From sequence record PZ445524.1: a stretch of 64,000 nt of DNA; one strand, written 5' to 3'. The translations under genes were made by a program, and so were the position numbers. The notes under the pieces are model-generated. The model worked only from the letters and a program-made list of their open reading frames with translations, had not been told where the DNA came from and did not search any database. Source of the DNA: a phage. Below, one piece after another: positions 5,398 to 58,100 of this stretch. Positions within the stretch are counted from its first letter, which is position 1. Every line of letters begins with the position of its first letter.

Positions 5398-5398
5398 T

Positions 5399-5962: not shown

Positions 5963-5963
5963 A

Positions 5964-6923: not shown

Positions 6924-6957
6924 AATTTCCTCATTCAAGTTTTAGTGTAAATTATAA

Positions 6958-6971: not shown

Positions 6972-6974
6972 CTA

Positions 6975-7661: not shown

Positions 7662-7716
7662 GTAATTTCCTTCAATTCAAATGAGATTTAATTTTATAAC
7701 TAATTTAATAAAGCAA

Positions 7717-8106: not shown

Positions 8107-8115
8107 AATACACCT

Positions 8116-8304: not shown

Positions 8305-8359
8305 GTTTTTCCTCCATAGAGATTATACTCTAATAAATTAAAGCATAATCTCTTATAAA

Positions 8360-10042: not shown

Positions 10043-10254
10043 AAAAGATTCCTTTTAATGTATCTTTTAGACCATTCTATCATATCATCATAATCTAAAA
10101 AGTATTCATCAAATTCAGCCATGCAAACAACACCTTGTGCTGTTTTTGATGTAATATAAATTATTCCAACATATCTAGAATCTTCTTCGATATAATCAAT
10201 ATTTGCTATGAATTCATCATTAATGTCAAATGTCGAAAACTTCACAGTATGCAT
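10039..10254 (-). CDS. Hypothetical small protein (46.1 position)
   Basis: Track ORF 10039-10302; likely start is the in-frame ATG at 10252-10254 (MHTVKF...), limiting overlap with the upstream ORF. Confidence 0.4.
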   Translation of the reverse strand: MHTVKFSTFDINDEFIANIDYIEEDSRYVGIIYITSKTAQGVVCMAEFDEYFLDYDDMIEWSKRYIKRNLL

Positions 10255-10489
10255 CCTTAATACAAGATACAGCCATATCTTGTAGTGATTTAGGTGTGTC
10301 ATTATCTAAAATGTTGAAGTTAAAAGATACAGCCCAGTCAGTGCAGACTGTAACCTTTTTAATACAATTATCTTCAACTTCTAGCGGTTCAAACCAGTAT
10401 TCAATAATTTCTTTATGCCCAATATCATCTTTTACTTCGCATTCAAAATGCTGACTCATCATAACATTTTTAAATTCATCAAAAGTCAT
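10226..10489 (-). CDS. Hypothetical small protein (46.2 position)
   Basis: 87-aa ORF between 47 and 46. Confidence 0.45.
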   Translation of the reverse strand: MTFDEFKNVMMSQHFECEVKDDIGHKEIIEYWFEPLEVEDNCIKKVTVCTDWAVSFNFNILDNDTPKSLQDMAVSCIKDAYCEVFDI

Positions 10490-11505
10490 TGTGTTGCCTC
10501 TACATATAGCTGATTTGCATATTGAATAAGTGCTTCACGGTCAGAATCAGTGATGTCTGGAATTGCATTAATATACTCTTCCATTAATGTCTGAAGCGAT
10601 TGAACTTCAACTTCTTCACTGTCATCTGACTCGACAGAGTTATCAATCTTTGACACAACTCGTAACGAATGCACAACTTTTTCTAGTTCAGATTCGAACT
10701 TCGTCAGATTTTTGTCTACTTCAGTTACTATAACACGTACTGATAGATTTGTAAAATCTTTATAGTCAATTTTTCCTTTAAATGGATAATGAATTCTACG
10801 ATGCCAGGTAGTATTGTTTGGAATAAATTCCATTCGTTCTGTTTCTGTATCAAACATCCAGAACCCACGAGGGTCATTCTCGTCACCTGCAGTTAGTGTC
10901 CATGGTGTCCCAATATATCTGACGTTTGCAGCCTCAGAAATAGTATGGAAGTGACCAGACCACACTTCTTTATAAGTCTTAAGGAAATCAGGTTCAAGAC
11001 CGTGAGATTTCATTCCTTTATAAAAATAAAATCCATTCAGTTCCCAGTGACCAACACAAAAAGAAGCAGATGAAGTTTTGATGTGCTCAAGAATTTCACC
11101 AGTATTTTCTTCGCACATCCAAGGAATCAAATCAATCAAACATCCGTCAAAATCTACTGTAGTAGGCTTATCATATACTTTAACATTAGGATATTTAGCC
11201 AAAAGCTCAGTAGAAGCATTTGGAGTTAAAGTATTTTTAAAGTGCATATCATGGTTTCCTACAACAGTATGCAGGGTAATACCAGCATCATCAAGCATTT
11301 GAACTATTTCACGAGCAAACTCCATAGTTTTATGCGTGATTGCTTTTCGCACATCAAAAATATCGCCGTATTGAATCCAGGTAGTAATTCCATTTTTCTT
11401 AGAATATTCTATCGCTTGCTTAATTCCATCCAACTGAATGGATTGAACCCACTCATCATCGGCTTTAACGCCTAAATGCCAATCACCTAAATTTAAAATT
11501 TTCAT
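10486..11505 (-). CDS. 47: Recombination endonuclease subunit gp47 (Mre11/SbcD-like)
   Basis: 339-aa ORF; calcineurin-like phosphoesterase motifs (GDWH, GNHD); same length as T4 gp47. Confidence 0.95.
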   Translation of the reverse strand: MKILNLGDWHLGVKADDEWVQSIQLDGIKQAIEYSKKNGITTWIQYGDIFDVRKAITHKTMEFAREIVQMLDDAGITLHTVVGNHDMHFKNTLTPNASTELLAKYPNVKVYDKPTTVDFDGCLIDLIPWMCEENTGEILEHIKTSSASFCVGHWELNGFYFYKGMKSHGLEPDFLKTYKEVWSGHFHTISEAANVRYIGTPWTLTAGDENDPRGFWMFDTETERMEFIPNNTTWHRRIHYPFKGKIDYKDFTNLSVRVIVTEVDKNLTKFESELEKVVHSLRVVSKIDNSVESDDSEEVEVQSLQTLMEEYINAIPDITDSDREALIQYANQLYVEATQ

Positions 11506-11666
11506 ATATCAAGAACCGTCATTGAAATGCAAAATAAAATTATTGAAATAAATCCATCTGGAGTGCTAAAGAACCCAATCCAACATGCTCTAGTGAATAG
11601 ATAAAATGCAAGAAAAAGTATCACATATCCAAGAAATATCATTATATCAAACTCCGTATAAAGCTA

Positions 11667-11683
11667 AAGGGCCGAAGCCCTTT
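11667..11683 (-). terminator. Hairpin aagggc-cgaa-gccctt overlapping the agt stop
   Basis: mRNA UAA then AGGGCUUCGGCCCUU then U-rich sequence. Confidence 0.45.
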
Positions 11684-12884
11684 ATTTTGTAATAATGTCA
11701 AACTGTTCTTTAAAGCAGAAGCTTGAATCTTGATGCTGATACAAAAATTCATATGCTTTTTCTCGCTCACGGTCATAAAGAGCTCGGTCAGATGACAGTT
11801 CTTTAATACGTTCAAATGTTGATTCCATGTCATTTTCATCAAACCAAATGATACCGCTATCATGCGAGGTCAAAGGAGTATTATCAACACGGAATTTTAA
11901 ATTTTCGCCAGTAGATTTCCAGAAAACAGGAATTGTACCGCAAGCACCTAATTCAAGATGAGTATATTCGAGTGAGCGTTGTAAGTATTTCTGGTTAAGT
12001 TTACTCAACTGATATCCAAAGCCAGATTTACTCATTCGTTCAAGCATTTCACTATTAATATAACAATCTAGGATTTGTGCCGGTTGATTCGGCGCGAGAT
12101 TCATTTTATCAATCTCACGATTACCGTAATATTCATACGGAATACCTTTTTCCTTAATTGCAATAAAAGCAGGGGAACGTTCAAGACCTTCCATTACAGT
12201 GGATTTACCAGAAGGTTTTAAGAATTTTTCGTGAAAATCAAACATCTGATAAAAACCTTTCCATGTAGTCGTACGACCAATCCAACGGTTGATGTTCATG
12301 TTAATTTCAGAAACATCTTTCCAATAAGTTGACCGAACCTTCGCAATATCCATAGGAGGCTGAAAGTTATATACTGTCGGTGCTTCTTCAATATCATCAA
12401 ACAGAGAAACAGTTTCTGGATACCATTCTTTCATCAGAACTTTATTAAAATCACCATTATCAGAATGGCTAAAAATAACATCAGCTCGACGAACAGTTTC
12501 TTCTAATCCCAAATTTCGACGCAAAGAAAGAACAGAATGATCATGCTGATAAACTACAACACGAATAGAAGGTTTAATATTATCTAAAAGTTTTTTATAG
12601 TTATTAATCGTGGCTTCTTGAACGGAAGTAGCAGGAACAGAATTAATAATTAGAATATCACAATCATTAATCAGTTTAAGTGCTTTATCGTATTCTTTAG
12701 CTAAAATAACTGGAATTGAAAATGATTTGTGGTCATGAGAACTTGTACGAGTAAATGATTTATCTTTAGCATAAACCAAAGTTACTTCATGACCATTTTT
12801 AATAAACCAATCACGTTGCTCGAGTGAGAATTTTGTTACACCACAACCTTCAAGACCCCGAGCCAGAAAAATGCATACTTTCAT
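11682..12884 (-). CDS. agt: DNA alpha-glucosyltransferase
   Basis: 400-aa ORF matching T4 Agt as recalled (MKVCIFLARGLEGCGVTKF...). Confidence 0.93.
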   Translation of the reverse strand: MKVCIFLARGLEGCGVTKFSLEQRDWFIKNGHEVTLVYAKDKSFTRTSSHDHKSFSIPVILAKEYDKALKLINDCDILIINSVPATSVQEATINNYKKLLDNIKPSIRVVVYQHDHSVLSLRRNLGLEETVRRADVIFSHSDNGDFNKVLMKEWYPETVSLFDDIEEAPTVYNFQPPMDIAKVRSTYWKDVSEINMNINRWIGRTTTWKGFYQMFDFHEKFLKPSGKSTVMEGLERSPAFIAIKEKGIPYEYYGNREIDKMNLAPNQPAQILDCYINSEMLERMSKSGFGYQLSKLNQKYLQRSLEYTHLELGACGTIPVFWKSTGENLKFRVDNTPLTSHDSGIIWFDENDMESTFERIKELSSDRALYDREREKAYEFLYQHQDSSFCFKEQFDIITK

Positions 12885-12938
12885 TTAATATCCTCTTTGT
12901 TTTGGTTCATTTTACCAAAAAATTTATAAAGCAATATA

Positions 12939-12952
12939 GGAGCCGAAGCTCC
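12939..12952 (-). terminator. Hairpin ggagc-cgaa-gctcc upstream of agt
   Basis: UUCG-loop hairpin in the intergenic region before agt. Confidence 0.35.
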
Positions 12953-13128
12953 TATCCACATAATACGCCATACAGAGGCTCGTTAGAACTTTTAAATTTT
13001 ATGCGCTTATATGTTATAGTTCCTTCTGCTTTAGCTTTATCATGAGACTCTTTAAAGCGTCTCATCATTTCCTCTTTAGAGGAACGAATTTTATTATAAT
13101 CTATTTCAGAAGTCTGGGTGTTCATCTT

Positions 13129-13335
13129 TCACAGTTGCCACCATTTTTTGACTTGATAAGAATCAACCCACACTTTCATATTAGGGTCTGCTCTTACAAT
13201 AGGAGGATTAACTTCTTTAATTGAACTATTACGGTATTCTTTTTCAGAAATTTTCACACAAAGATGACCATTCAAAGATTCAGTAAATCCTGCATTAATT
13301 TTAAGACGCTTGAATTTTACGCGTGTAAGCATCAA
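13129..13335 (-). CDS. Hypothetical small protein
   Basis: 68-aa ORF between 55 and agt; overlaps the upstream ORF, start uncertain. Confidence 0.35.
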   Translation of the reverse strand: MMLTRVKFKRLKINAGFTESLNGHLCVKISEKEYRNSSIKEVNPPIVRADPNMKVWVDSYQVKKWWQL

Positions 13336-13618
13336 TCATATCCTCAATCTGCGATCTAGTAGTCTTCCAAAGAATACTAATGAGTTCATCGTTATATGGC
13401 TGTTTTAGAATATCCCGACTTTTCTTGATAGCATATTCGTATTGAGCAAAATTATTATTTTCAGCTGCAATCTGAGCGTGCTTATAAAGACGATTCAGTT
13501 CGCGTTTGTTTTTAGACAATAACTTATTTGCTTTTCTTTCTGCTTCAAGACGGTTCTTTTCTTCAATAGAAGAAATAAGCTTTTCCACTTCATCATTAAT
13601 TTCGGGTTTATCAGTCAT
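13301..13618 (-). CDS. Hypothetical protein, helical
   Basis: 105-aa ORF, charged and helical; no recognised motif. Confidence 0.5.
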   Translation of the reverse strand: MTDKPEINDEVEKLISSIEEKNRLEAERKANKLLSKNKRELNRLYKHAQIAAENNNFAQYEYAIKKSRDILKQPYNDELISILWKTTRSQIEDMIDAYTRKIQAS

Positions 13619-13619
13619 A

Positions 13620-13838
13620 TTATTTCTCTAATATAAAATAAAAATCATCATCTGTTAAATGATACCGATAGTTTAATTCTACACCATTAGATTTAAAAGC
13701 GGTATCATACGGATTTTCTGGATCAATATCAATGTCAAGAGCTAAAACTTCCCTGAGATACATTTTAAGTAAATAGGGAATAGCTTCAACTTCAGGTATT
13801 TCTTCCAAGAATCCGGAGAGGTTAATCGTTAGCCTCAT
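13620..13838 (-). CDS. Hypothetical acidic small protein
   Basis: 72-aa ORF with ATG at 13836-13838; start overlaps the 3' end of gene 55. Confidence 0.45.
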
Positions 13839-14379
13839 ATAAAAAATCCAAACTAGGAGAATCGTCTACAACACTTTTCTTTTCAGCCCCCGGTGTTCTA
13901 TAGGTTGATTCTTCGTAATGCGTCATTTTATCGTAGATGTCTTGAATAAAAGTTTCATCTACTAACGCAACCATATCGTCGTCACGACTGTCATAGACAT
14001 TGTGAACGAAGTAACTATATTTCTTTGCAACTTCCTTACGTTCTTTTTTAATACGTTGGACGAATGCATTAAAACAAGCTTGAGTTATATACGCATGTGG
14101 GTTTTTATATTTCGTTTCATCAAAATTATGAAGCCCCTTAATAGAAGCTTCTATACCATCTGCAATCATTTCTTGTTTCCAAGACTGGGTGTATCCTGAA
14201 AAGTTGAAACGTTTAGATAAGCCTTCTGCAATAAGCATAATGGCTAATCCGATAGTATCATTCTGACGAACTACTTTATTTGGGTCTTTATTATTTGCTA
14301 ATTCTGTTTTCCAATCAATAATAGCTTGTAAAAGCTCTTTATTGTTTACGTAATTATATTTAGGCTTAGTTTCTGACAT
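13822..14379 (-). CDS. 55: Late-transcription sigma factor gp55
   Basis: ATG at 14377-14379 with GAGGTG SD gives 185 aa [11 protein letters not shown]..., matching T4 gp55 as recalled. Confidence 0.92.
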
Positions 14380-14457
14380 TTTCACCTCTTAGCTCAATTC
14401 ATAGATCTATTATATCATAATATTTGAAGATCTATCTTAAAGCATAGAGGATATCAG

Positions 14458-14727
14458 TTATCTAAGTAAGCAGTATGCTTGGAACACTTTCTCCATCATC
14501 TTTTTAAATTCATGAATATCTATATAATGACTAGTTAAATCAGCATGATATAAAAAGTCTAAAAACTTTTCATGTGTGCTAACATATTCACTTTCATTTA
14601 ATTCAGAAACATGACTTTCCCAATATCCAACACCAGTCTTATTTGGGAAAAATGAAATTTTCATGTATTGGTCAACATAGAAAATGCCATAATTTTCAAT
14701 AGTAATAGAAATATTAATAAATTTCAT
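14458..14727 (-). CDS. Hypothetical protein
   Basis: 89-aa ORF in the block between 55 and nrdH (T4 55.x positions). Confidence 0.45.
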   Translation of the reverse strand: MKFINISITIENYGIFYVDQYMKISFFPNKTGVGYWESHVSELNESEYVSTHEKFLDFLYHADLTSHYIDIHEFKKMMEKVFQAYCLLR

Positions 14728-14945
14728 ACATTCATCAACTTAGCCGCTTCAAGAGCTGCATCTAGTGAATCAAATTGATCGACATATTCAATCAGTTCGC
14801 CGTAATTAGCATATAACCACCATTGGCTAAATTCATACTCAAGGATGAATCCGTTTCCTTCAATTTGAGTTAAACCAATGCCATTTGTATTTACTTCATA
14901 TCCAGCAAGACGCAAATCGTTAATAAGAGCTTCGTTCATATTCAT
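14724..14945 (-). CDS. Hypothetical protein
   Basis: 73-aa ORF, start overlaps upstream stop. Confidence 0.45.
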   Translation of the reverse strand: MNMNEALINDLRLAGYEVNTNGIGLTQIEGNGFILEYEFSQWWLYANYGELIEYVDQFDSLDAALEAAKLMNV

Positions 14946-15268
14946 ACCTTAGTAATTTTCAGGTCTGCAAATTTTTTCTTGCGTTGATTTTTCATGCGAC
15001 GAATAGTTTTATCGGAAATTTCATGCTTTTGATAAGCTTTAGATTCTACACCAAAAGCTTTAACATCAAATTCTGACAAGATATATTGAACCAACAATTC
15101 ACGGACAGTATTGCGTCCAATCTTCTGATCATTCTGTTTCATCGTCTGATGAAGCTCTTTTTCCCATTTATCCAAAATTTGAGGAGTTACAATATCGCCT
15201 TTTTCTAGCAAAGAAACTACTTTATCATATGCGTAAGAATTAATGACGTTTTTAATTTGAATAGTCAT
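14942..15268 (-). CDS. Hypothetical protein
   Basis: 108-aa ORF with a basic C-terminal tail. Confidence 0.5.
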   Translation of the reverse strand: MTIQIKNVINSYAYDKVVSLLEKGDIVTPQILDKWEKELHQTMKQNDQKIGRNTVRELLVQYILSEFDVKAFGVESKAYQKHEISDKTIRRMKNQRKKKFADLKITKV

Positions 15269-15308
15269 ACATTATCCTCAATTACGTTAAAATTTTATCA
15301 TCCAAAAA

Positions 15309-15320
15309 GGGCCGAAGCCC
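15309..15320 (-). terminator. Hairpin gggc-cgaa-gccc after the 66-aa ORF
   Basis: mRNA GGGCUUCGGCCC directly after the stop codon. Confidence 0.4.
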
Positions 15321-15521
15321 TTAGCTAAACTTTTTGGCACCCTTCCAGCCTTCGTACATCATTGCGGCTGATATTAATATTGCTCCTGAGCAACTTGAAT
15401 ATTTGTGGTTCCAAAACCAATTCAGAAAAACTTCGTCATCAATACCTTGGGCTATCATATTTTCAAAGAACTGACGACGAGCTTCGGCAATTCGCTGCGA
15501 TAATTTAGATTCAGGATTCAT
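15321..15521 (-). CDS. Hypothetical small protein
   Basis: 66-aa ORF. Confidence 0.45.
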   Translation of the reverse strand: MNPESKLSQRIAEARRQFFENMIAQGIDDEVFLNWFWNHKYSSCSGAILISAAMMYEGWKGAKKFS

Positions 15522-15653
15522 TTAAATTTCCCAATTACCATTTTCATCAATAAATTTAATCCAGTCATTTACTGACCACTTAGTTGTATCGCCTTTTGGA
15601 GTAACATTTAAAGTATATAGTCCTTGCTTAAAAAGCATTCGTTTGATATTCAT
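15522..15653 (-). CDS. Hypothetical small protein (43 aa)
   Basis: Track ORF 15522-15737 overlaps the upstream gene; in-frame ATG at 15651-15653 (MNIKRMLF...) avoids the overlap. Confidence 0.3.
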   Translation of the reverse strand: MNIKRMLFKQGLYTLNVTPKGDTTKWSVNDWIKFIDENGNWEI

Positions 15654-15660
15654 ATTTTCC

Positions 15661-15954
15661 TCAGCTATAACGATAACACTCGTTTGATTTACGCTTAGCA
15701 ACCCGTTGAGAAGTATTATAATCAAAATCATCGTCAATGTAAACTGATTTTTTCAACTTTCTTACTTCACCGCGTAATTGACGATTTAACTCATCTTTAA
15801 CTTCTGAATCAATGCCTTTCATTCTACGCCATTTATCTGAGCGAAAAATGTTTTCAACCATATCTTTATGACTTACCCCATCAGGAGCTTTACGCTTTCC
15901 GAAATAGTCATAATCACGAACTTTCAAGTCTTTACGACGATACGTTTTACCCAT
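15661..15954 (-). CDS. Highly basic small protein
   Basis: Start moved to ATG 15952-15954 (MGKTYRRKDLKV...); 97 aa, very Lys/Arg rich. Confidence 0.45.
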   Translation of the reverse strand: MGKTYRRKDLKVRDYDYFGKRKAPDGVSHKDMVENIFRSDKWRRMKGIDSEVKDELNRQLRGEVRKLKKSVYIDDDFDYNTSQRVAKRKSNECYRYS

Positions 15955-16123
15955 GGAGTTTAATTTCCTTAGCAACTGAACTAAATACAGCACGATCACA
16001 AACCATGCGTTTGTTCCATTTAATCACAGTATAATGAACATCTAGATCATCGACTGCTGTAACAATAACGATATGTCCGTTAACACGATAATACTGATCA
16101 ATTTTAATCTCTTTATCAACCAT
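15947..16123 (-). CDS. Hypothetical small protein (58 aa)
   Basis: Found by hand, below the track cutoff: ATG 16121-16123 gives MVDKEIKIDQYYRVNGHIVIV...; stop overlaps the next ATG. Confidence 0.3.
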   Translation of the reverse strand: MVDKEIKIDQYYRVNGHIVIVTAVDDLDVHYTVIKWNKRMVCDRAVFSSVAKEIKLHG

Positions 16124-16151
16124 ATCAATTCCTCAAAGGCAATTCATGTGT

Positions 16152-16185
16152 TAATAATACCACAGTTTGAGCTCGTTGTAAACAA
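16152..16185 (-). promoter_or_regulatory. T4-type early promoter
   Basis: Minus strand GTTTAC, 18-nt spacer, TGGTATTAT. Confidence 0.45.
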
Positions 16186-16264
16186 CTTTGTGAAAATTAT
16201 TTTAGGGAATGATAAGAAGGGAACGATAGCTTAGAATGGTAATATACAGAATGTGAGAAAGAAA

Positions 16265-16277
16265 GGCCCAGAGGGCC
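16265..16277 (-). terminator. Hairpin ggccc-aga-gggcc after nrdH-like gene
   Basis: GC-rich inverted repeat directly after the stop. Confidence 0.35.
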
Positions 16278-16281
16278 CGTC

Positions 16282-16590
16282 TTAATCTTCTATGATATCT
16301 CTATCATATCCAAGTGAAATGAGAGTTTCTTTGAAGTGTTTAATGTTCTTTTGTCTAGAATCATTAATGAAAATGACTGGATAACGAATGTTAAGAGATG
16401 TGAATCCAGCGCGTTTAGCAAGAGATACAATCAGTGGACGATCATACTCAATCTTACCATTATTTGTAAGAACTTTATAGAAAGTAAAAGGAGCATTGAG
16501 CTCCTTTAGAAGTTTTGTAACTGATTGACATCCAGGACAACGACCTACTTCATCTGGAATTCCATAGACTTCAATCTTATTTTGTTTCAC
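16282..16590 (-). CDS. nrdH: Glutaredoxin/thioredoxin-like redox protein (NrdH-like)
   Basis: 102 aa with CPGC redox motif; GTG start at 16588-16590 with AAGGAA SD; T4 nrdH position. Confidence 0.65.
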   Translation of the reverse strand: MKQNKIEVYGIPDEVGRCPGCQSVTKLLKELNAPFTFYKVLTNNGKIEYDRPLIVSLAKRAGFTSLNIRYPVIFINDSRQKNIKHFKETLISLGYDRDIIED

Positions 16591-16592
16591 AA

Positions 16593-16805
16593 CTATTCCT
16601 TACTAAGAGCAGCATTCAGCTTGTTAGTAATTTTATCCAGACGCTCATTGAACTCACTAGAAGATAAGCCCTTTTCTGGAGAAATCAAACTAATCACGAA
16701 AAATATAGCAATAAAAGGAATAAGGAAAATAGCTCCAACTGCCATAAACAGAAAGAATGTTACAGTTGTAAGAAAATCAGCTAAACCTTTACGAAATTTA
16801 TACAT
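16593..16805 (-). CDS. Small membrane protein
   Basis: 70 aa with one long hydrophobic segment. Confidence 0.5.
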   Translation of the reverse strand: MYKFRKGLADFLTTVTFFLFMAVGAIFLIPFIAIFFVISLISPEKGLSSSEFNERLDKITNKLNAALSKE

Positions 16806-26921: not shown

Positions 26922-27890
26922 TTATTTCAGAAGAGTAACCTCAGCGATTTCTTCCCAACCGTTTTTGTCGGTCATAATAAAGTCAGCAAGATAAAGAGCA
27001 GTACGCAGTGAAACATTGCGTAAACGGTTAACATTGACTTTCATCCATGATAATGCTTTATAAGTTTCTTCATCAGAAAGACCGCGCTTTTGCATCATGT
27101 CAGTTGAAAGAATAACATCTTCAACCCTGACCATAATTTCTTCATTAGTGTGAACACCCAAATCCAAATAAACTGAGCGGGACACTAATGCTTGTAAATG
27201 TGGAGCAAGTTTAGTACCACGGTCTAATTCGCGGTCAATGTCAACGTTTGTGATAAAAACAATCGTTCCTTTAAATTCAAACTCACGCTCAATGCCTTTT
27301 TCTTCTAAATAAGAAGATGCAGTGCTCCAGCAGACTTTACGGGTCTCTCCAGTGTCCAGAGCAGCTTTCAGAAGATTAAGAATGTCCATATCAGAGAAAA
27401 CATCCACATCATCAATCAAAAGGACAGAATTCTCTTCACGATTATTCCAGAGCTGTTCATAAAGACCGATACCAGAGATTTTACCGTTAATGCTTTTATA
27501 TTCAATGTATCCAATATCATTTGCTTTATTTAAAGCTTTATCTAAAGAATACGTTTTACCAATACCTGCTGCTCCCGAGATAATTAATGAACGAATATTT
27601 CCGTTAATAATACCATTCGTCATCATTCCCATAACATTAAATCTTTTATTAATGCGGGTTTTCATATCTTCATATGATTCTTTAACTTCTTCAACTTTTA
27701 CACCATCATATGAAATGTCTGATTTGTAAACCCAAACACCACGACGTTTACCGTCAATTTCAACAAAAACTTTACCATCTCCTTGTGCATCTACTGGTGC
27801 ATTATCTGGGAACCATTCGCCTAAGAGCTCAAAAGTTCCAGAGATTTCTTTACCGAAGTAGATACCCTTATTGATAGTTACAGTTTTCAT
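26922..27890 (-). CDS. P-loop ATPase
   Basis: Track start is TTG; ATG at 27888-27890 with GGAG SD gives 322 aa; Walker A GAAGIGKT and Walker B LLIDDVD. Confidence 0.6.
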   Translation of the reverse strand: MKTVTINKGIYFGKEISGTFELLGEWFPDNAPVDAQGDGKVFVEIDGKRRGVWVYKSDISYDGVKVEEVKESYEDMKTRINKRFNVMGMMTNGIINGNIRSLIISGAAGIGKTYSLDKALNKANDIGYIEYKSINGKISGIGLYEQLWNNREENSVLLIDDVDVFSDMDILNLLKAALDTGETRKVCWSTASSYLEEKGIEREFEFKGTIVFITNVDIDRELDRGTKLAPHLQALVSRSVYLDLGVHTNEEIMVRVEDVILSTDMMQKRGLSDEETYKALSWMKVNVNRLRNVSLRTALYLADFIMTDKNGWEEIAEVTLLK

Positions 27891-27919
27891 TTTATTCTCC
27901 AAATCCGTATCAGTTGATA

Positions 27920-27956
27920 GTTGTATAGTACCATAAAGCTTTATGCTTGTAAACAG
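27920..27956 (-). promoter_or_regulatory. T4-type early promoter cassette (copy of the 2100-2136 element)
   Basis: Shares the leader ccgtatcag...ttgatagttgtatagtaccat...gtaaacagtttt with the elements at 2081-2165 and 42041-42127. Confidence 0.45.
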
Positions 27957-27984
27957 TTTTGTGAAAAATTTTTGAAATAAAAAA

Positions 27985-28002
27985 GGGAGCCCGAAGGCTC
28001 CC
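27985..28002 (-). terminator. Hairpin gggagcc-cgaa-ggctccc after the nucleotidyltransferase gene
   Basis: 7-bp GC stem with UUCG loop in mRNA, 2 nt after the stop, followed by U-rich tract. Confidence 0.5.
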
Positions 28003-28004
28003 TA

Positions 28005-29015
28005 TCATTTATAATAACTTCGGTGGTTTTCAAGATAGACCTTCTCAAGGAAGTCATCCCAGAAACCCATGTCTACTTTTTGCTGCATACCGTTCTTAGA
28101 AGCTTCAGTAGATGCTGCTTCTACTTGATCGACCACATCTTCCAAAAACTCTTGAACCGTTTTAAATGGATGTTTACCCAACTTCACGTCGAGAATAAAT
28201 GGAGCGTCTTTGAGTGGATAGACTAAGTCGCCAGTTTTGTAAATTTCCAATAGTTGAAGTCCACCACGACAAGCATGGCTCAGAGCTTTCCAGTCAATGC
28301 CTTCGTTGGCTTCGGCCTTACGAGCGCGTTCACCATATTCAGCATCTAATTTGTTCAGTGACTGCTTAAGCTCAATAAGAGAAAGAGTTGTCTGATATTT
28401 ACGACCCAACACAGTGTAGAACGTTTGTGGGCCTGTTTTCTCATGATTATGAAATACCCATTCACAGAACTCGTTCTCTGGAAGACGATGCTTAATATCT
28501 TCAACTTTAGTGCGACGCTGCTTAATAGAACCATCTTCTTGGTAATCAACCCATTGCTCAGGGATTTGATTAACTACTTTCAATACATCGCGTAATGCAG
28601 CCAAACGAGAACCCTTGACACCGTATTTAGAAGCTTGCTTGCGAACATATCCTAAATATGATTTCATGTTAGTCGTATAAAAACGAGAACGGTTGTCTTG
28701 AATAAACTTCCACACATCAGGCAAATCAGATTTAACCACTAGCTCAGGTGGAGTGTGAAGCATATCTAATGCTACAGTTTCACCATCTGCTGCTAATTTA
28801 AAGAAATACTTAAGACTGTATAGTTCATGGTCAATATCATCTTTAGTGTTTTTAGATGATGTGTTGTTAGTGTTTTTACTCATATGCTCTTTGACGTTTC
28901 CGATAAGAATATCGCGAGCAGGAGGAACAAAAATTTCTTTAAAATCTACATCAGATTCTGGGGTAGAAGTTCCATAAAGATGACTACCAAAATAAGACTT
29001 AACTACAGTTTTCAT
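28005..29015 (-). CDS. Polymerase-beta-superfamily nucleotidyltransferase-like protein
   Basis: N-terminal motif GSHLYGTSTPESDVDF (GS-x10-DxD) plus a later acidic residue (VALDMLH). Start ambiguous: track 29051 is TTG, ATGs at 29039, 29030, 29015; the start region overlaps the 3' end of the HNH gene. Confidence 0.55.
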   Translation of the reverse strand: MKTVVKSYFGSHLYGTSTPESDVDFKEIFVPPARDILIGNVKEHMSKNTNNTSSKNTKDDIDHELYSLKYFFKLAADGETVALDMLHTPPELVVKSDLPDVWKFIQDNRSRFYTTNMKSYLGYVRKQASKYGVKGSRLAALRDVLKVVNQIPEQWVDYQEDGSIKQRRTKVEDIKHRLPENEFCEWVFHNHEKTGPQTFYTVLGRKYQTTLSLIELKQSLNKLDAEYGERARKAEANEGIDWKALSHACRGGLQLLEIYKTGDLVYPLKDAPFILDVKLGKHPFKTVQEFLEDVVDQVEAASTEASKNGMQQKVDMGFWDDFLEKVYLENHRSYYK

Positions 29016-29778
29016 TATTAGACCTTTCATAATCTTCATTAAATTGTACAATCAATCGATGATAATTAGATTTTGGATATCCTAATTTACTTATATAAGT
29101 TCCGAATGACCCACGTTTAGGTCTATTTAATTTAATCCATAACTTATAAAGTAAGTCATAGTCTTGCCAATGTTTACCAGTTCTTTGTCTAATTTTAGAT
29201 GAATTTGATTGTTTCTTTTTAGTTTCAAAATTATTCAAAGATTTTTTGACTGCAGCAGAGTGTTTTTCTTTAACTCCCGGTCGTTTAAAAGCAGCTTTCA
29301 CCCCTTTAGATATTTTTTCTTTAACTTCCGGTTTGTTTTGTGCTTCTAACTGGGATTCTGAAATTTTAGCCCTTATTTCAGGAAGACTTAATGTTATCGA
29401 ACGTTTTTCTCTGTATTCATTAGACTTCCACATTTCTTTCATTGTATTAGAATGTATTTTTGAAAATTTTTCTCTAACTAACTGATATCCTCTTGAAGTT
29501 AATTTGAGATTTCTTCCTAAAGAATCTTCTCCAAAATTATAAAATGACCACCATGCATAAATTAATCCAGGCGAATTATAATGAATTTTAGCTAAAAGCC
29601 AATGGGCTATAAAATGCTCTCTAGCTGTTAATAAAACTAGATTATCAGAATCATCATTACCACCAATACAAGATGGAATAATATGATGCTTTTCCGTATA
29701 AAAATTTAATTTAGATTTATCTAATTTTCTGAGTTTTCCTTTCTTAATTAAATTATTATATACTTTAGTATAATTCAT
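28999..29778 (-). CDS. mobD: HNH homing endonuclease (MobD-like)
   Basis: 259 aa; HNH core EKHHIIPSCIGGNDDSDNLVLLTAREHFIAHW; repeated basic C-terminal modules (PEVKEKISKGVKAAFKRPGVKEKHSAAVKKS). Confidence 0.75.
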   Translation of the reverse strand: MNYTKVYNNLIKKGKLRKLDKSKLNFYTEKHHIIPSCIGGNDDSDNLVLLTAREHFIAHWLLAKIHYNSPGLIYAWWSFYNFGEDSLGRNLKLTSRGYQLVREKFSKIHSNTMKEMWKSNEYREKRSITLSLPEIRAKISESQLEAQNKPEVKEKISKGVKAAFKRPGVKEKHSAAVKKSLNNFETKKKQSNSSKIRQRTGKHWQDYDLLYKLWIKLNRPKRGSFGTYISKLGYPKSNYHRLIVQFNEDYERSNNENCS

Positions 29779-29852
29779 TGGTTCTTCGTCTCATTTAATT
29801 TTGCTTTGCATTTATAACACATGTCTGTTCCACTTGAAATAAACATATTTCC

Positions 29853-30410
29853 TCACTTTGAAATCATAGTTGGAATAACAGAATCAAGATAAGTCTTTAG
29901 TGCAATAGCTTCGTCTTTGTTTAATGTAATGATATGTGATCGAAAATCGTCAATTTGACGAATAGATACTATATCTCCCTCTTCATAGCATTTTGACACA
30001 TTTAAAATAGTTTCATCATTATGATTACAGGAGTTAGTAATAATAGCATTACATTTTTTAAACCATTTTAAATTATGTTTTCTTTTAGTAGAATCATAAA
30101 AATATTTAATGTTAGTTATAAAATTATCCCAATTATTAATTGATAAGCACATTGACTCGCTTTTAATATTAAATCCTGGGCATGAAGAATAAAAATGAAT
30201 TTTATGCTCATCATTAATGCTTACAATTTTATCAGTGTAAGCATATTCAATTTGGGTTAAACGAACAATTTCGCTAGGCGTAAAATATAACATGTCATCT
30301 TCTTGCGTCAAACGATACATGTTATTTACTTTTTCTATAGCCAATTCACCAAAAAGCGGACTAACTTCTAATACTAATCGTTTCATATTGATTCTCTTCG
30401 ACTCACTCAC
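29853..30410 (-). CDS. Hypothetical Cys-rich protein
   Basis: 185 aa with scattered cysteines; start may be GTG at 30410 or ATG at 30386. Confidence 0.45.
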   Translation of the reverse strand: MSESKRINMKRLVLEVSPLFGELAIEKVNNMYRLTQEDDMLYFTPSEIVRLTQIEYAYTDKIVSINDEHKIHFYSSCPGFNIKSESMCLSINNWDNFITNIKYFYDSTKRKHNLKWFKKCNAIITNSCNHNDETILNVSKCYEEGDIVSIRQIDDFRSHIITLNKDEAIALKTYLDSVIPTMISK

Positions 30411-43236: not shown

Positions 43237-43313
43237 TGGTCGAGGCAGAAGGATTCTAACCTTCAACCTACGGATTAGAAATCCGTTGCTCTATACAATT
43301 GAGCTATGCCCCG
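43237..43313 (-). tRNA. tRNA-Arg (anticodon UCU), CCA encoded
   Basis: Cloverleaf built by hand: acceptor CGGGGCA/TGCCTCG, anticodon loop TTTCTAA, T-loop GTTAGAATCC. Confidence 0.85.
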
Positions 43314-43316
43314 TAA

Positions 43317-43982
43317 TTAAAATTTCATTTTTCGACCTTTAAACCATCCTTCTGGAATTGGGTCAGTTTTCTTAATACGTTTAGAAACTTTTTCATCTAA
43401 TGAATGAATCCACATCATACCAAATTGGGAATTCTTTTCGCCCTGTTGATGTTTATTTCTGGCGTGAGATTCTTTCATTTTATTAATAGTTTCAGGAGTA
43501 TGATGCTTATTTAAAAATCTGCTATTATTTAAAAATTTTTCCCTGTATTCAGGAGTTGACCACAAGCGTTTAAATACATTTGAACCATGTTTACGATATT
43601 TTTCTTGAAGTAAAATATCATTTTTAAAACGTGACTTAAACGATTTAGCTCCTTTTAAGCTAGCATCTTTCTTCTGGTTTAGCATCCCAGGAATATTTAC
43701 ATGATCCCATCCACCTTCACCACCAAGTTTTAAATTATACACATCTGGTCTATTTAAAAACTCTTCTGTGACAATATTTTTCTCGGCTTCAAGCATAGAT
43801 TCTTTATCATCAAAATACTCTAATATTTCTTTAGAAAAATTTTCTATACCATATTTATCTTGGGCTCTTTTTAATAATTTACCAGAACCCATATATCCAT
43901 CATCTAAATTTTCGGTAGAATGCGCACCAATATAAATTTTATTATTAATTTTATTTGTTATTTTATAAGTGTAATGGAACAT
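43317..43982 (-). CDS. segB: GIY-YIG homing endonuclease SegB
   Basis: 221 aa; GIY-YIG motif (YTYKITNKINNKIYIGAHST); sits between tRNA subclusters as in T4. Confidence 0.85.
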   Translation of the reverse strand: MFHYTYKITNKINNKIYIGAHSTENLDDGYMGSGKLLKRAQDKYGIENFSKEILEYFDDKESMLEAEKNIVTEEFLNRPDVYNLKLGGEGGWDHVNIPGMLNQKKDASLKGAKSFKSRFKNDILLQEKYRKHGSNVFKRLWSTPEYREKFLNNSRFLNKHHTPETINKMKESHARNKHQQGEKNSQFGMMWIHSLDEKVSKRIKKTDPIPEGWFKGRKMKF

Positions 43983-44023
43983 AAATATCTCCTATTTCTA
44001 AGAGTATTTATGTTCCCAAAATA

Positions 44024-44095
44024 TGGCCCTGGGTGGAATTGAACCACCATCTGGCGATTATGAGTCGCTTGCTTGAACCTTCCAGCTACAGGGCC
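44024..44095 (-). tRNA. tRNA-Ile (anticodon CAU), CCA not encoded
   Basis: Acceptor GGCCCTG/CAGGGCC; anticodon loop CTCATAA; T-loop GGTTCAATTCC. Confidence 0.8.
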
Positions 44096-44096
44096 T

Positions 44097-44172
44097 TGGT
44101 GCTGATTGACGGAATCGAACCGCCGACCTTCTCATTACAAGTGAGTTGCTCTACCTACTGAGCTAAATCAGC
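44097..44172 (-). tRNA. tRNA-Thr (anticodon UGU), CCA encoded
   Basis: Acceptor GCTGATT/AATCAGC; anticodon loop CTTGTAA; T-loop GGTTCGATTCC. Confidence 0.85.
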
Positions 44173-44174
44173 AA

Positions 44175-44261
44175 CGGAGGCGATAGGATTTGAACCTATG
44201 AGTCGCCGGAGCGACTGCCGGTTTTCAAGACCGGTGCATTAAACCACTCTGCCACGCCTCC
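44175..44261 (-). tRNA. tRNA-Ser (anticodon UGA), long variable arm, CCA not encoded
   Basis: Acceptor GGAGGCG/CGCCTCC with G discriminator; anticodon loop CTTGAAA; long extra arm. Confidence 0.85.
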
Positions 44262-44263
44262 AG

Positions 44264-44337
44264 TCTCCGCGGCAGGATTTGAACCTGCGACATTCTGCTC
44301 CCAAAGCAGACGCTCTACCAAACTGAGCTACACGGAG
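44264..44337 (-). tRNA. tRNA-Pro (anticodon UGG), CCA not encoded
   Basis: Anticodon stem TCTGC/GCAGA with loop TTTGGGA; T-loop GGTTCAAATCC. Confidence 0.85.
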
Positions 44338-44347
44338 TAAATTAAAT

Positions 44348-44421
<74 letters not shown>

Positions 44422-44426
44422 AAATT

Positions 44427-44513
44427 TGGTGCGAGAAGTGGGACTCGAACCCACAAGGAAATCATTCCGCAGCATTTTAAGTGCTGTGCCTTTACCAATT
44501 TGACCATTCTCGC
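44427..44513 (-). tRNA. tRNA-Leu (anticodon UAA), long variable arm, CCA encoded
   Basis: Acceptor GCGAGAA/TTCTCGC; anticodon loop CTTAAAA; long extra arm. Confidence 0.85.
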
Positions 44514-44514
44514 G

Positions 44515-44587
44515 CTGGGAATAAAGGACTCGAACCTTTGCATCCTGGAATCAAAATCCAGTGCCTTACCAACTTGGCTAATTCCCA
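44515..44587 (-). tRNA. tRNA-Gln (anticodon UUG), CCA not encoded
   Basis: Acceptor TGGGAAT/ATTCCCA; anticodon loop TTTTGAT; only 1 nt separates it from tRNA-Leu. Confidence 0.85.
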
Positions 44588-50669: not shown

Positions 50670-52380
50670 TAACCTTAATTGGTTTGTTGGTGTTGTTGAA
50701 GATAGAATGGACCCATTAAAATTAGGTCGTGTTCGTGTTCGTGTGGTTGGTCTGCATCCACCTCAAAGAGCACAAGGTGATGTAATGGGTATTCCAACTG
50801 AAAAATTACCATGGATGTCAGTTATTCAACCTATAACTTCTGCAGCAATGTCAGGAATTGGAGGTTCTGTTACAGGGCCAGTAGAAGGAACTAGAGTTTA
50901 TGGTCATTTTTTAGACAAATGGAAAACTAACGGAATTGTCCTTGGTACGTATGGTGGAATAGTTCGCGAAAAACCGAATAGACTTGAAGGATTTTCTGAC
51001 CCAACTGGGCAGTATCCTAGACGTTTAGGAAATGATACTAACGTACTAAACCAAGGCGGAGAAGTAGGATATGATTCGTCTTCTAACGTTATCCAAGATA
51101 GTAACTTAGACACTGCAATAAATCCCGATGATAGACCACTATCAGAAATTCCAACTGATGATAATCCAAATATGTCAATGGCTGAAATGCTTCGCCGTGA
51201 TGAAGGATTAAGACTAAAAGTTTATTGGGATACTGAAGGATATCCGACAATTGGTATTGGTCATCTTATCATGAAGCAGCCAGTTCGTGATATGGCTCAA
51301 ATTAATAAAGTTTTATCAAAACAAGTTGGTCGTGAAATTACTGGAAACCCAGGTTCTATTACAATGAAAGAAGCGACGACTTTATTTGAACGTGATTTGG
51401 CTGATATGCAACGGGACATTAAATCACATTCTAAAGTAGGACCAGTCTGGAAAGCTGTCAACCGTTCTCGTCAAATGGCGTTAGAAAATATGGCATTTCA
51501 GATGGGTGTTGGTGGTGTAGCTAAATTTAACACAATGTTAACTGCTATGTTAGCAGGAGATTGGGAAAAAGCATATAAAGCCGGTCGTGATTCATTGTGG
51601 TATCAACAAACAAAAGGCCGTGCATCCCGTGTTACCATGATTATTCTTACGGGGAATTTGGAATCATATGGTGTTGAAGTGAAAACACCAGCTAGGTCTT
51701 TATCTGCAATGGCTGCTACTGTAGCTAAATCTTCTGACCCTGCTGACCCTCCTATTCCAAATGACTCGAGAATTTTATTCAAAGAACCAGTTTCTTCATA
51801 TAAAGGTGAATATCCTTATGTGCATACAATGGAAACTGAAAGCGGACATATTCAGGAATTTGATGATACCCCTGGGCAAGAACGATACAGATTAGTTCAT
51901 CCAACTGGAACTTATGAAGAAGTATCACCGTCAGGAAGAAGAACAAGAAAAACTGTTGATAATTTGTATGATATAACCAACGCTGATGGTAATTTTTTGG
52001 TAGCCGGTGATAAAAAGACTAACGTCGGTGGATCAGAAATTTATTATAACATGGATAATCGTCTTCATCAAATAGATGGAAGTAATACAATATTTGTACG
52101 TGGCGATGAAACTAAGACAGTTGAAGGTAATGGAACTATCCTAGTCAAAGGTAATGTTACTATTGTAGTTGAAGGCAATGCTGACATTACAGTTAAAGGA
52201 GATGCTACCACTTTAGTTGAAGGAAATCAAACTAATACAGTAAATGGAAACCTTTCTTGGAAAGTTGCCGGGACAGTTGATTGGGACGTTGGTGGTGATT
52301 GGACAGAAAAAATGGCATCTATGAGTTCTATTTCATCTGGTCAATACACAATTGATGGATCGAGGATTGACATTGGCTAA
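50653..52380 (+). CDS. 5: Baseplate hub spike and tail lysozyme gp5
   Basis: 575 aa; lysozyme domain (MAEMLRRDEGLRLKVYWDTEGYPTIGIGHL) and C-terminal VxGxxxxx beta-helix repeats. Confidence 0.97.
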   Translation: MEMISNNLNWFVGVVEDRMDPLKLGRVRVRVVGLHPPQRAQGDVMGIPTEKLPWMSVIQPITSAAMSGIGGSVTGPVEGTRVYGHFLDKWKTNGIVLGTYGGIVREKPNRLEGFSDPTGQYPRRLGNDTNVLNQGGEVGYDSSSNVIQDSNLDTAINPDDRPLSEIPTDDNPNMSMAEMLRRDEGLRLKVYWDTEGYPTIGIGHLIMKQPVRDMAQINKVLSKQVGREITGNPGSITMKEATTLFERDLADMQRDIKSHSKVGPVWKAVNRSRQMALENMAFQMGVGGVAKFNTMLTAMLAGDWEKAYKAGRDSLWYQQTKGRASRVTMIILTGNLESYGVEVKTPARSLSAMAATVAKSSDPADPPIPNDSRILFKEPVSSYKGEYPYVHTMETESGHIQEFDDTPGQERYRLVHPTGTYEEVSPSGRRTRKTVDNLYDITNADGNFLVAGDKKTNVGGSEIYYNMDNRLHQIDGSNTIFVRGDETKTVEGNGTILVKGNVTIVVEGNADITVKGDATTLVEGNQTNTVNGNLSWKVAGTVDWDVGGDWTEKMASMSSISSGQYTIDGSRIDIG

Positions 52381-55194: not shown

Positions 55195-58100
55195 CAGTAA
55201 AAGCACCTTCAGTCACTAGTCTCAGAATTTCCAAGTTATCCGCAAATCAGGTGCAAGTACGCTGGGATGACGTTGGTGCTAATTTCTACTATTTTGTAGA
55301 AATCGCTGAGACAAAAACAGACTCGGGGGAAAATCTCCCGAGTAATCAATACAAATGGATTAACTTAGGATATACAGCAAATAATAGTTTCTTTTTTGAT
55401 GATGCTGATCCATTAACAACATACATTATTAGAGTAGCCACAGCTGCGCAAGATTTTGAGCAGTCTGATTGGATTTATACCGAAGAGTTTGAAACTTTTG
55501 CTACAAATGCTTATACATTTCAAAACATGATTGAAATGCAATTAGCCAATAAATTCATTCAGGAAAAATTTACTCTTAATAATTCTGATTATGTTAATTT
55601 TAATAATGATACTATAATGGCTGCATTGATGAATGAATCGTTCCAATTCAGCCCATCATATGTTGATGTTTCATCAATAAGTAATTTTATTATTGGTGAA
55701 AATGAGTATCATGAAATACAAGGTTCCATTCAGCAAGTATGTAAGGATATTAATCGAGTTTATTTGATGGAATCAGAAGGGATTCTATATCTTTTTGAGC
55801 GCTATCAGCCTGTAGTTAAAGTATCCAATGATAAAGGACAAACCTGGAAAGCTGTGAAGCTCTTCAATGACCGTGTAGGATATCCTTTATCTAAGACAGT
55901 ATATTACCAATCTGCGAACACAACATACGTTCTAGGATACGACAAGGTCTTCTATGGCCGTAAATCGACTGACGTTAGATGGTCAGCAGATGATGTCAGA
56001 TTCAGTTCACAGGATATAACATTTGCTAAATTAGGAGACCAACTTCATTTAGGATTCGATGTTGAAATCTTCGCTACTTATGCTACTTTACCAGCGAATG
56101 TATACCGTATAGCTGAGGCTATTACTTGCACGGATGATTATATCTATGTTGTTGCCAGAGATAAAGTTAGATACATAAAAACGAGTAATGCACCTATAGA
56201 TTCTGATCCATTATCCCCAACATATTCGGAAAGACTTTTTGAACCTGACACAATGACTATAACCGGAAATCCTAAAGCAGTATGCTATAAAATGGATTCT
56301 GTTGGTGATAAAGTTTTTGCTCTTATTATTGGTGAAGTTGAAACATTAAATGCCAATCCGAGAACATCAAAAATAATTGATTCCGCTGATAAAGGAATAT
56401 ATGTTTTAAACCATGATACGAAAACGTGGAAAAGAGTTTTTGGTAATACTGAAGAAGAAAGAAGACGTATTCAACCCGGATATGCGAATATGTCAACTGA
56501 CGGTAAATTAGTTTCTCTGTCTTCGAGTAATTTTAAATTTTTAAGTGATAATGTTGTTAATGACCCTGAAACTGCAGCAAAATATCAGTTAATTGGTGCT
56601 GTCAAATATGAATTTCCTCGTGAATGGTTAGCTGATAAGCATTATCATATGATGGCATTTATAGCGGATGAAAAATCTGATTGGGAGACTTTTACTCCTC
56701 AACCAATGAAATACTACGCAGAACCGTTCTTTAACTGGTCTAAAAAATCTAACACACGCTGTTGGATAAACAACTCTGATAGAGCTGTAGTAGTTTATGC
56801 GGATTTAAAATACACCAAAGTTATAGAAAATATTCCGGAAACATCACCAGATAGATTAGTACATGAATACTGGGATGATGGCGATTGCACTATAGTAATG
56901 CCAAATGTTAAATTCACTGGATTTAAAAAATACGCATCAGGAATGCTTTTCTATAAAGCCTCCGGTGAAATAATTTCTTACTATGATTTTAACTATCGTG
57001 TGAGAGATACAGTAGAAATTATTTGGAAGCCAACTGAAGTATTTTTAAAAGCATTTTTACAAAACCAAGAGCATGAGACTCCTTGGTCACCAGAAGAAGA
57101 GCGTGGATTAGCTGACCCCGATTTAAGGCCATTAATTGGCACAATGATGCCTGATTCTTATTTGTTACAGGATTCGAATTTTGAGGCATTTTGCGAAGCA
57201 TATATTCAATATCTTTCTGATGGATATGGAACTCAGTATAACAATTTACGAAATTTAATTCGTAATCAGTATCCTAGAGAAGAGCATGCATGGGAATATT
57301 TGTGGTCAGAGATATATAAAAGAAACATTTATTTAAATGCTGATAAACGCGATGCTGTTGCGAGATTCTTTGAATCACGTAGCTATGATTTTTATTCTAC
57401 TAAAGGAATTGAAGCATCATACAAGTTTCTTTTTAAAGTTCTTTATAATGAAGAAGTTGAAATTGAAATTGAATCTGGGGCTGGTACTGAATATGACATA
57501 ATCGTTCAATCTGATTCTTTGACTGAAGATTTAGTAGGACAAACGATTTATACGGCAACAGGAAGATGTAATGTTACTTATATAGAAAGAAGCTATTCTA
57601 ATGGTAAATTGCAATGGACCGTAACTATTCATAATCTTTTGGGAAGATTAATTGCTGGTCAAGAAGTTAAAGCAGAAAGACTCCCTAGTTTTGAAGGCGA
57701 AATTATTCGTGGCGTTAAAGGAAAGGATTTGCTTCAAAACAATATAGACTATATTAATAGAAGTAGATCATACTATGTAATGAAAATTAAATCCAATTTA
57801 CCTTCTTCCCGCTGGAAATCTGACGTTATTCGTTTTGTTCATCCAGTAGGATTTGGATTTATAGCAATTACCCTTTTAACAATGTTTATTAATGTTGGTT
57901 TAACTCTTAAACATACAGAGACTATAATTAATAAATACAAAAACTATAAATGGGATTCTGGATTGCCTACTGAATATGCCGACAGAATAGCTAAATTAAC
58001 TCCAACCGGTGAAATTGAGCATGATTCAGTAACAGGCGAAGCAATTTATGAGCCTGGCCCAATGGCTGGTGTAAAATATCCTCTTCCTGATGACTATAAT

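Follow-up and report, generated by a model that had tools for sequence, protein, structure and literature searches.

The repair of tRNA-Lys cleaved by the anticodon nuclease PrrC, in which the phage T4 enzymes Pnk (encoded by pseT) and Rnl1 (encoded by rnlA) heal and seal the broken ends, is the founding example of both RNA repair and phage counter-defence. The nuclease RloC also excises the wobble nucleotide, and this lesion was proposed in 2008 to defy T4 repair (PMC2610378). Nucleotidyltransferases of the RlaP family have been predicted to replace nucleotides lost to RloC-type nucleases (PMC7824862); the nucleotide-restoring idea is attributed to Burroughs and Aravind (2016), who named RlaP, by papers that cite their work (PMC12776372, PMC7824862), and the same prediction was made by Iyer et al. 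(2021) and Carruthers et al. (2025). Here, we analyzed a 64,000-nucleotide (nt) stretch of phage DNA (sequence record PZ445524.1; hereafter the window) and describe the gene on its minus strand at 28005..29015, the counterpart of T4 nrdC.11, whose product is a predicted nucleotidyltransferase of a long, divergent RlaP subfamily and a candidate for a nucleotide-adding step in phage tRNA repair.

Two short RlaPs from Pseudomonas have been characterized biochemically (PMC12776372). They labelled RNA, not DNA or protein, required a 3'-OH end, added one or two nucleoside monophosphates with little base specificity, and preferred Mn2+. In a cleaved-tRNA mimic, they favoured the 3' end of the 5' half, and they partly restored the aminoacylation of a tRNA missing one anticodon-loop nucleotide; full-length tRNAs were labelled as well (PMC12776372). 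The RlaP product suits ligases that join 5'-P and 3'-OH ends better than it suits RtcB (PMC12776372).

Identity, family and fold of NrdC.11

A 4-kb query around the gene, spanning mobD.1, mobD, nrdC.11, nrdC.10, and nrdC.9, was 97.6% identical to T4. T4 RefSeq lists the matching gene as nrdC.11 (55435..56445), with "nucleotidyltransferase" as its product. The open reading frame (ORF) comprises 336 codons from an ATG at 29013-29015, followed by a TGA stop at 28005-28007, and its product shares 99% identity with a 751-sequence cluster to which phage T2 belongs, and 99.7% with the homologue of phage PinkRuby. It is all but certain that the gene is the orthologue of T4 nrdC.11 and belongs to the RlaP family. 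Both the gene and its family assignment were already known, and our finding is a rediscovery of an annotated gene: nrdC.11 orthologues were assigned to the nucleotidyltransferase group COG3541 as early as 2006 (PMC1524935), and a preprint on RlaP from December 2025 labels "T4NrdC.11" within its sequence network, as part of cluster 5 (PMC12776372). An earlier note on this DNA, written from the sequence alone, had missed the identity with nrdC.11 as well as the existing assignment to RlaP and RNA repair. The present analysis adds a modest amount: it places the T4 enzyme in a separate long subfamily, which is itself found within RtcB and Pnkp/Hen1 operons, often beside a canonical RlaP.

A word-index search retrieved 2,524 homologous proteins, and 1,573 phage records contained a homologue. 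Among representatives clustered at 50% identity, 3,396 matched at E <= 1e-3 and 828 at E <= 1e-30, mostly over the full length, and a precomputed PF10127 assignment was available for nearly all homologues. GenBank and UniRef wrongly label many of these proteins 'thioredoxin', apparently through propagation from the gene name nrdC.x, and one carries the label 'putative HNH homing endonuclease'.

The N-terminus of the product, MKTVVKSYFGSHLYGTSTPESDVDFKEIF, contains the signature G10-S11-x10-D22-x-D24, represented by GSHLYGTSTPESDVD. The earlier note had recognized this GS-x10-DxD pattern and placed the protein in the polymerase-beta (Pol-beta) nucleotidyltransferase superfamily. In the stop-free segments of at least 60 amino acids (aa) in the window, which total 31,240 residues, the bare pattern occurred twice. 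Because a second copy exists within the window, the pattern alone is not significant; in NrdC.11 it is validated by the Pfam RlaP match, conservation among homologues and the predicted nucleotidyltransferase fold. The other exact copy, GSEDLATVAAIADKD, is probably fortuitous; it is encoded at 51696..51740 (minus strand), within a stop-free segment of 70 aa.

The match to Pfam PF10127 (RlaP, "RNA repair pathway DNA polymerase beta family") scored 43.8 bits against a cut-off of 23 (E = 3.3e-11) and was limited to residues 7-134, corresponding to profile positions 24-142 of 249. PHROG 388 ('nucleotidyltransferase') matched over the full length (E = 6e-136), and a search of NCBIfam gave no match. 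Searching the PDB by sequence with either the single protein or a profile of 125 homologues found no chain, even at E = 10 and E = 1, in a copy of the database that apparently lacked the PfRlaP structure.

In an alignment of these 125 homologues, reaching down to ~22% identity, G10 and S11 were present in 124 sequences and D22 and D24 in all 125. Thus, the acidic residues whose lack of conservation would have spoken against the earlier assignment are conserved. The invariant positions were L13, G15, S21, D22, D24, Y123, R230, D241, H247, R250, and P267. Position 62 was Asp in 116 sequences and Glu in eight, and position 84 was always acidic (Asp in 90, Glu in 35). D62 aligns with the invariant Asp of the short-RlaP motif 'lDinGWD', and D84 with the invariant Glu of 'EWL'. 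Since D62 falls on an invariant Asp of the short form, the predicted catalytic triad consists of D22, D24, and D62.

The AlphaFold2 model, built with the 125-sequence alignment, had a predicted local distance difference test (pLDDT) score of 90.8 and a predicted template modelling (pTM) score of 0.76. It comprises an N-terminal alpha/beta domain, a helical linker, a beta-rich insert (~aa 154-208), and a C-terminal helical bundle that bears the invariant residues R230, D241, H247, R250, and P267. The predicted alpha/beta core superposed on solved members of the Pol-beta nucleotidyltransferase superfamily. The nucleotidyltransferase fold was confidently predicted, which removes the possibility raised in the earlier note that the motif is fortuitous. 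Judged by sequence and predicted structure, NrdC.11 is a catalytically intact nucleotidyltransferase of the Pol-beta fold and of the RlaP family.

Among the structural neighbours of the model were aminoglycoside and lincosamide nucleotidyltransferases as well as MNT/HEPN pairs, which have in common a nucleotidyltransferase domain and a helical bundle. The best match was HalB (PDB 9dbh), the oligo-dA maker of the Hailong defence system, and the earlier note had considered that the protein might make or modify nucleotide signals in conflict with host immunity. NrdC.11 might, on this evidence, make or mimic a nucleotide or oligonucleotide signal, either as a HalB-like synthase countering Hailong or as a cGAS/CD-NTase-like or decoy enzyme, but we regard this as very improbable. 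Identity to HalB was 14%, with no detectable sequence relationship, and the similarity was confined to the common nucleotidyltransferase core, as was that to kanamycin nucleotidyltransferase and to 3c18, an uncharacterized nucleotidyltransferase-like protein without sequence similarity to NrdC.11. HalB is a protein of 217 aa that carries out protein-primed DNA synthesis, yields oligodeoxyadenylate and has the channel HalA as its partner; none of this was seen for NrdC.11, and no effector-like or HalA-like gene, including any membrane effector of the HalA type, adjoins nrdC.11. There was no CD-NTase or cGAS structure among the matches listed, no CD-NTase model match with a linked effector, and no match in PADLOC, and the cellular context of the subfamily, presented below, is RNA repair, not defence islands. 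The kanamycin and aminoglycoside nucleotidyltransferases ANT(4') and AAD(9) differ from NrdC.11 in their small-molecule substrates and genomic context and share no sequence similarity with it.

Long and short RlaPs in cellular RNA-repair operons

We compared the long-type alignment with that of 15 short paralogues at the profile level. The two were homologous (hhalign probability 95%, E = 3.6e-8) over residues 1-135 only, that is, over the N-terminal nucleotidyltransferase domain with the same GS...DxD signature and third Asp. Both forms also share a common layout, in which a helical C-terminal region comes after the nucleotidyltransferase domain. By contrast, NrdC.11 has 336 aa versus ~250 aa, falls in cluster 5 of the sequence network versus cluster 1a, and carries its beta-rich insert within the C-terminal 200 aa that do not align with short RlaPs; in T4 its gene adjoins no RNA ligase, and its activity is a prediction from sequence. 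Every long-type sequence contained the C-terminal module, in which residues 151-170 form a variable segment. NrdC.11 therefore does not have the full-length architecture of the characterized RlaPs and, given the partial match and a C-terminus of its own, we assign it to a divergent 'long' subfamily, not to canonical RlaP.

To survey cellular relatives, we scanned one genome per species, which gave 141 places, and retained the 80 best loci, with identities of 32-54% along their full length. These came from Desulfobacterales, Nitrospirota, Alphaproteobacteria, Chlamydiales, archaea, and others; many contigs were short, and the neighbour counts are lower bounds. In an unbiased clustering of neighbouring ORFs, a short paralogue of ~255 aa was found directly downstream of the long form in at least 17 of the 80 loci. 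This paralogue is a canonical RlaP, matching PF10127 over the full length (E = 3e-51). RtcB was the commonest unrelated neighbour family and, apart from the short paralogue, no family defined by this de novo clustering occurred in more than seven loci.

The RlaP family owes its name to genomic proximity to RNA ligases or RNA end-healing genes. Genes of RNA repair were counted here by directed tblastn with the proteins of one locus, with a sample of loci confirmed by Pfam. Within 8 kb of the long RlaP, we found RtcB in nine of the 80 loci, Pnkp, Hen1, and Ro60 in four each, and RtcA in two; at least one of the five was present in 14 loci, some of them in evident operons. By a rough estimate, fewer than one such locus in 80 would be expected by chance, since these genes number at most a few per genome and a 16-kb interval makes up well under 1% of a bacterial genome. 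The association of the long RlaP with RNA repair is real, and it is not obligatory. Three bacterial or metagenomic homologues that were inspected individually had prophage-like or uninformative surroundings, and the RNA-repair signal appeared only in the systematic scan of 80 loci.

The most complete gene order was RtcR, Ro60, RtcB, RtcA, long RlaP, short RlaP, Hen1, AAA_5, DUF2201, and Pnkp, at locus L045. This unusually complete RNA-repair island occupies 1807-16626 of a contig from an uncultured Nitrosospira (CAADGK010000054.1), with all genes except RtcR on the same strand; its AAA_5 protein is a MoxR-like ATPase, and its DUF2201 protein is a vWA metallopeptidase-like protein. Shorter arrangements were Hen1-Pnkp-long-short (L088) and RtcB-long-short (L082).

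Tandem long and short RlaPs were observed in diverse bacteria, at L013, L016, L029-L031, L039, L040, L045, L061, L062, L064, L066, L072, L077, L078, L083, and L088, and both members of the pair retained the catalytic residues. The tandem pair suggests two non-redundant nucleotidyltransferases or a heteromer.

Such non-redundancy, together with a subfamily-specific C-terminal module that leaves the choice of substrate free, could also mean that NrdC.11 nucleotidylates something other than broken RNA ends: intact host tRNAs or other RNAs, as in MenT/AbiEii-like tailing, a protein, by AMPylation in the manner of an MNT antitoxin, or a small molecule, as aminoglycoside nucleotidyltransferases do. 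The 3' tailing of RNA could serve host shut-off or RNA stabilization, and the structural neighbours of the model include the aminoglycoside and lincosamide nucleotidyltransferases and MNT/HEPN pairs. Such an enzyme might act with the ATPase-like NrdC.10; in 37 of 78 related viral loci, the nrdC.10 gene is situated downstream within ~2 kb. We consider a substrate of this kind unlikely. The characterized RlaPs modified only RNA, and the operon partners of the long form are enzymes that heal and seal RNA ends. The nrdC.10 linkage was found only in closer relatives and looks like inherited synteny, and nrdC.11 and nrdC.10 have a terminator and a promoter-like site between them.

A possible fill step in phage tRNA repair

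By analogy with the short RlaPs, we somewhat favour a role of NrdC.11 in adding nucleotides to RNA 3'-OH ends, as a fill step between Pnk and Rnl1 in tRNA repair. Pnk would generate 3'-OH and 5'-P ends, NrdC.11 would restore the trimmed 3' nucleotides, and Rnl1 would seal the break. Drawing on nucleoside triphosphates (NTPs), the enzyme would extend the 3'-OH of broken RNA, mainly of tRNA halves, by one or a few nucleotides without a template, through two-metal catalysis in which D22, D24, and D62 would bind the metals, and the basic C-terminal residues R230, K243, H247, R250, and K278 may hold the NTP or the RNA end. In this way, the phage could reverse the action of ribotoxins that both cut RNA and remove nucleotides, such as RloC.

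The proposal resembles the described heal-and-seal pathway of T4 in the type of phage and the kind of conflict, and the chemistry would fit: RlaP requires a 3'-OH of the kind that Pnk makes and leaves a 3'-OH that Rnl1 can use. It differs in that the lesions made by PrrC in tRNA-Lys need no fill-in, and the participation of NrdC.11 is proposed by analogy. The numbers of phage records with NrdC.11 and with Rnl1 matched closely by genus (Escherichia 641/639, Klebsiella 295/287, Shigella 83/83, and Acinetobacter 69/69), which we count as weak support. A fragment from nrdC.11 to mobD.3 was spontaneously lost from viable T4 mutants (PMC9825161), which fits an accessory, conditional role in counter-defence.

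Several observations weigh against the fill-step proposal. The C-terminal 200 aa, which should set substrate choice, cannot be aligned with short RlaPs, and the activity of the short form is therefore not simply transferable to NrdC.11; the frequent position of the long form beside a short RlaP likewise argues that the two do different jobs. Untemplated addition gives the correct nucleotide in only a fraction of molecules, as the preprint itself remarks (PMC12776372). In the cellular survey, 66 of the 80 loci, many on short contigs, had no RNA-repair neighbour. In T4, nrdC.11 lies ~78-80 kb from pseT and rnlA, with the unrelated neighbours mobD and nrdC.10, and an RNA ligase was found within 8 kb in just two of the 78 related viral loci. 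The co-occurrence with Rnl1 is confounded by shared ancestry within the Straboviridae. Searching the literature by gene name and identifiers, we found no functional study of NrdC.11.

Another use of the same chemistry would be the maturation of tRNA 3' ends, which the earlier note had offered as a possible role after observing that four phage tRNAs lack an encoded CCA. The observation was borne out. Of the eight tRNA genes in the cluster at 43237-44587 (minus strand), those for Gln, Pro, and Ser and one with a CAT anticodon lack CCA; those for Leu, Gly, Thr, and Arg encode it. ARAGORN calls the CAT-anticodon tRNA Met; we take it to correspond to T4 tRNA-Ile, making the four Gln, Pro, Ser, and Ile(cat). 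A phage CCA-adding or CCA-repair enzyme, serving these tRNAs or ends trimmed by defence systems, would belong to the same Pol-beta superfamily and act on tRNA 3' ends, and the ability of RlaPs to add one or two nucleotides at an RNA 3'-OH with little NTP specificity makes partial repair of CCA ends chemically possible. Nevertheless, there is little chance that this is the function of NrdC.11. The protein had no match to CCA-adding or poly(A)-polymerase families in Pfam or NCBIfam at E <= 0.01, none of the PDB structure matches listed was of the CCA-adding type, and the head-neck-body-tail architecture of class I and II CCA-adding enzymes is absent from it. Moreover, CCA maturation is done by host enzymes, T4 pre-tRNA processing having been reported to depend on the host tRNA nucleotidyltransferase, and NrdC.11 orthologues are located in bacterial RNA-repair operons. 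Thus, the superfamily assignment of the earlier note stands, and neither of the roles it had put forward, CCA maturation and nucleotide signalling, found support.

A more specific form of the fill-step proposal is that NrdC.11 is a functionally distinct long RlaP and the missing third enzyme of T4 tRNA repair, so that Pnk would heal, NrdC.11 fill, and Rnl1 seal. We put this forward tentatively and think it rather doubtful; it draws on the C-terminal module peculiar to the long form, the retention of catalytic residues in both forms and their tandem occurrence in RtcB and Pnkp/Hen1 operons. If fill-in by NrdC.11 is true, it would close the arms-race loop with nucleotide-excising nucleases of the RloC type, and a gene of ~1,500 sequenced phage genomes would gain a function.

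Gene anatomy, transcription and the mobD cassette

The features of the locus are listed in Table 1. The longest mechanical ORF of nrdC.11 extends upstream to a TTG at 29051. The start annotated for T4 nrdC.11 corresponds to the ATG at 29015, which has an AAAGG Shine-Dalgarno sequence ~8 nt on its 5' side, within mobD. The earlier note had reported that the start overlaps a homing endonuclease gene, and the ATG does lie within the 3' end of mobD, the two genes sharing 17 nt in the same arrangement as in T4. The HNH match of mobD in Pfam (E = 0.0029) was below the gathering score. The hairpin terminator that the earlier note had placed directly after the gene was also recovered: GGGAGCC-UUCG-GGCUCCC followed by U6, at 28003..27984, starting one base past the stop codon, with a free energy of -17.3 kcal/mol (z = -3.5 versus shuffled sequences).

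Table 1 Features of the nrdC.11 locus in the window.
Feature	Position	Strand	Evidence or remark
nrdC.11 coding sequence, predicted long-type RlaP-family Pol-beta nucleotidyltransferase	28005..29015	-	ORF, T4 match, PF10127, PHROG 388, AlphaFold2
N-terminal nucleotidyltransferase domain, ~aa 1-135	28611..29015	-	sole part alignable with canonical RlaP
Active-site signature G10-S11-x10-D22-x-D24	28944..28988	-	conservation in 125 homologues
D62, predicted third catalytic carboxylate	28830..28832	-	homologue conservation; alignment with short RlaP
D84, further always-acidic position	28764..28766	-	homologue conservation; alignment with short RlaP
Subfamily-specific C-terminal module, aa 136-336 (helices, beta-rich insert, helical bundle)	28008..28610	-	
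Overlap of mobD 3' end and nrdC.11 start, 17 nt	28999..29015	-	
Intrinsic terminator (8-bp GC-rich stem, UUCG loop, U6 tract)	27974..28003	-	folding energy, shuffles
mobD, HNH homing-endonuclease gene, mobile cassette carrying the nrdC.11 ribosome-binding site	28999..29778	-	

A sigma-70 scan revealed no convincing promoter between mobD and the nrdC.11 ATG, and no late-promoter TATAAATA was found nearby. The gene had been described in the earlier note as its own transcription unit; this found no support, in that a convincing promoter was lacking and the start codon lies within the upstream gene, an overlap that is also seen in relatives without mobD. In the T4 literature, mobD appears either as a cassette that lacks a promoter and is part of a polycistronic message, or as a gene whose expression is driven from the 3' end of its upstream neighbour (PMC2988022). 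mobD and nrdC.11 are probably co-transcribed. Because mobD is described in these terms, the genes overlap and no convincing local promoter is present, nrdC.11 most likely comes last on a transcript that begins upstream of mobD.

Comparison with close relatives that lack mobD indicated that the segment at ~29020-29827 is a replaceable cassette, with breakpoints 25 nt past the mobD.1 stop and 4 nt ahead of the nrdC.11 ATG. At this site, relatives with a 99% identical NrdC.11 carry a y05I-like ORF of 173 aa and a predicted membrane protein of 153 aa, and the stop codon of the latter likewise overlaps the nrdC.11 ATG (L092, 7016-8001). Among the 78 related viral loci, mobD was present in one. The upstream gene mobD.1 (29853-30410, minus strand) matched both Pfam domains of a y05I-like family of putative transcription factors (PF24449, 3e-43; PF24448, 9e-21), and a paralogue of it occupies the mobD site in related phages.

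Downstream of the terminator, a promoter-like site at 27953..27925 (TTTACA, 17 nt, TACTAT, with an upstream TG) is followed by nrdC.10 (26922-27902, minus strand). The 326-aa product of this gene, which occurs in 1,313 phage records, had AAA/STAND-like P-loop matches that all stayed below threshold. The linkage of nrdC.10 to nrdC.11 was confined to relatives whose NrdC.11 is ~60% identical or more and was absent from Aeh1, Vibrio and many other phages. NrdC.10 was considered as a functional partner of NrdC.11 and is unsupported in that capacity, as the linkage tracks close relatedness and the terminator and promoter-like site lie between the genes.

A different arrangement was observed in Bacillus phage vB_BauM_KLEB27-3 (L005, 118-5601), in which a 252-aa nucleotidyltransferase matching only the N-terminal domain of NrdC.11 is encoded between two metallophosphoesterase genes, ~3 kb from a polynucleotide kinase gene. 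This set looks like a phage RNA-repair module.

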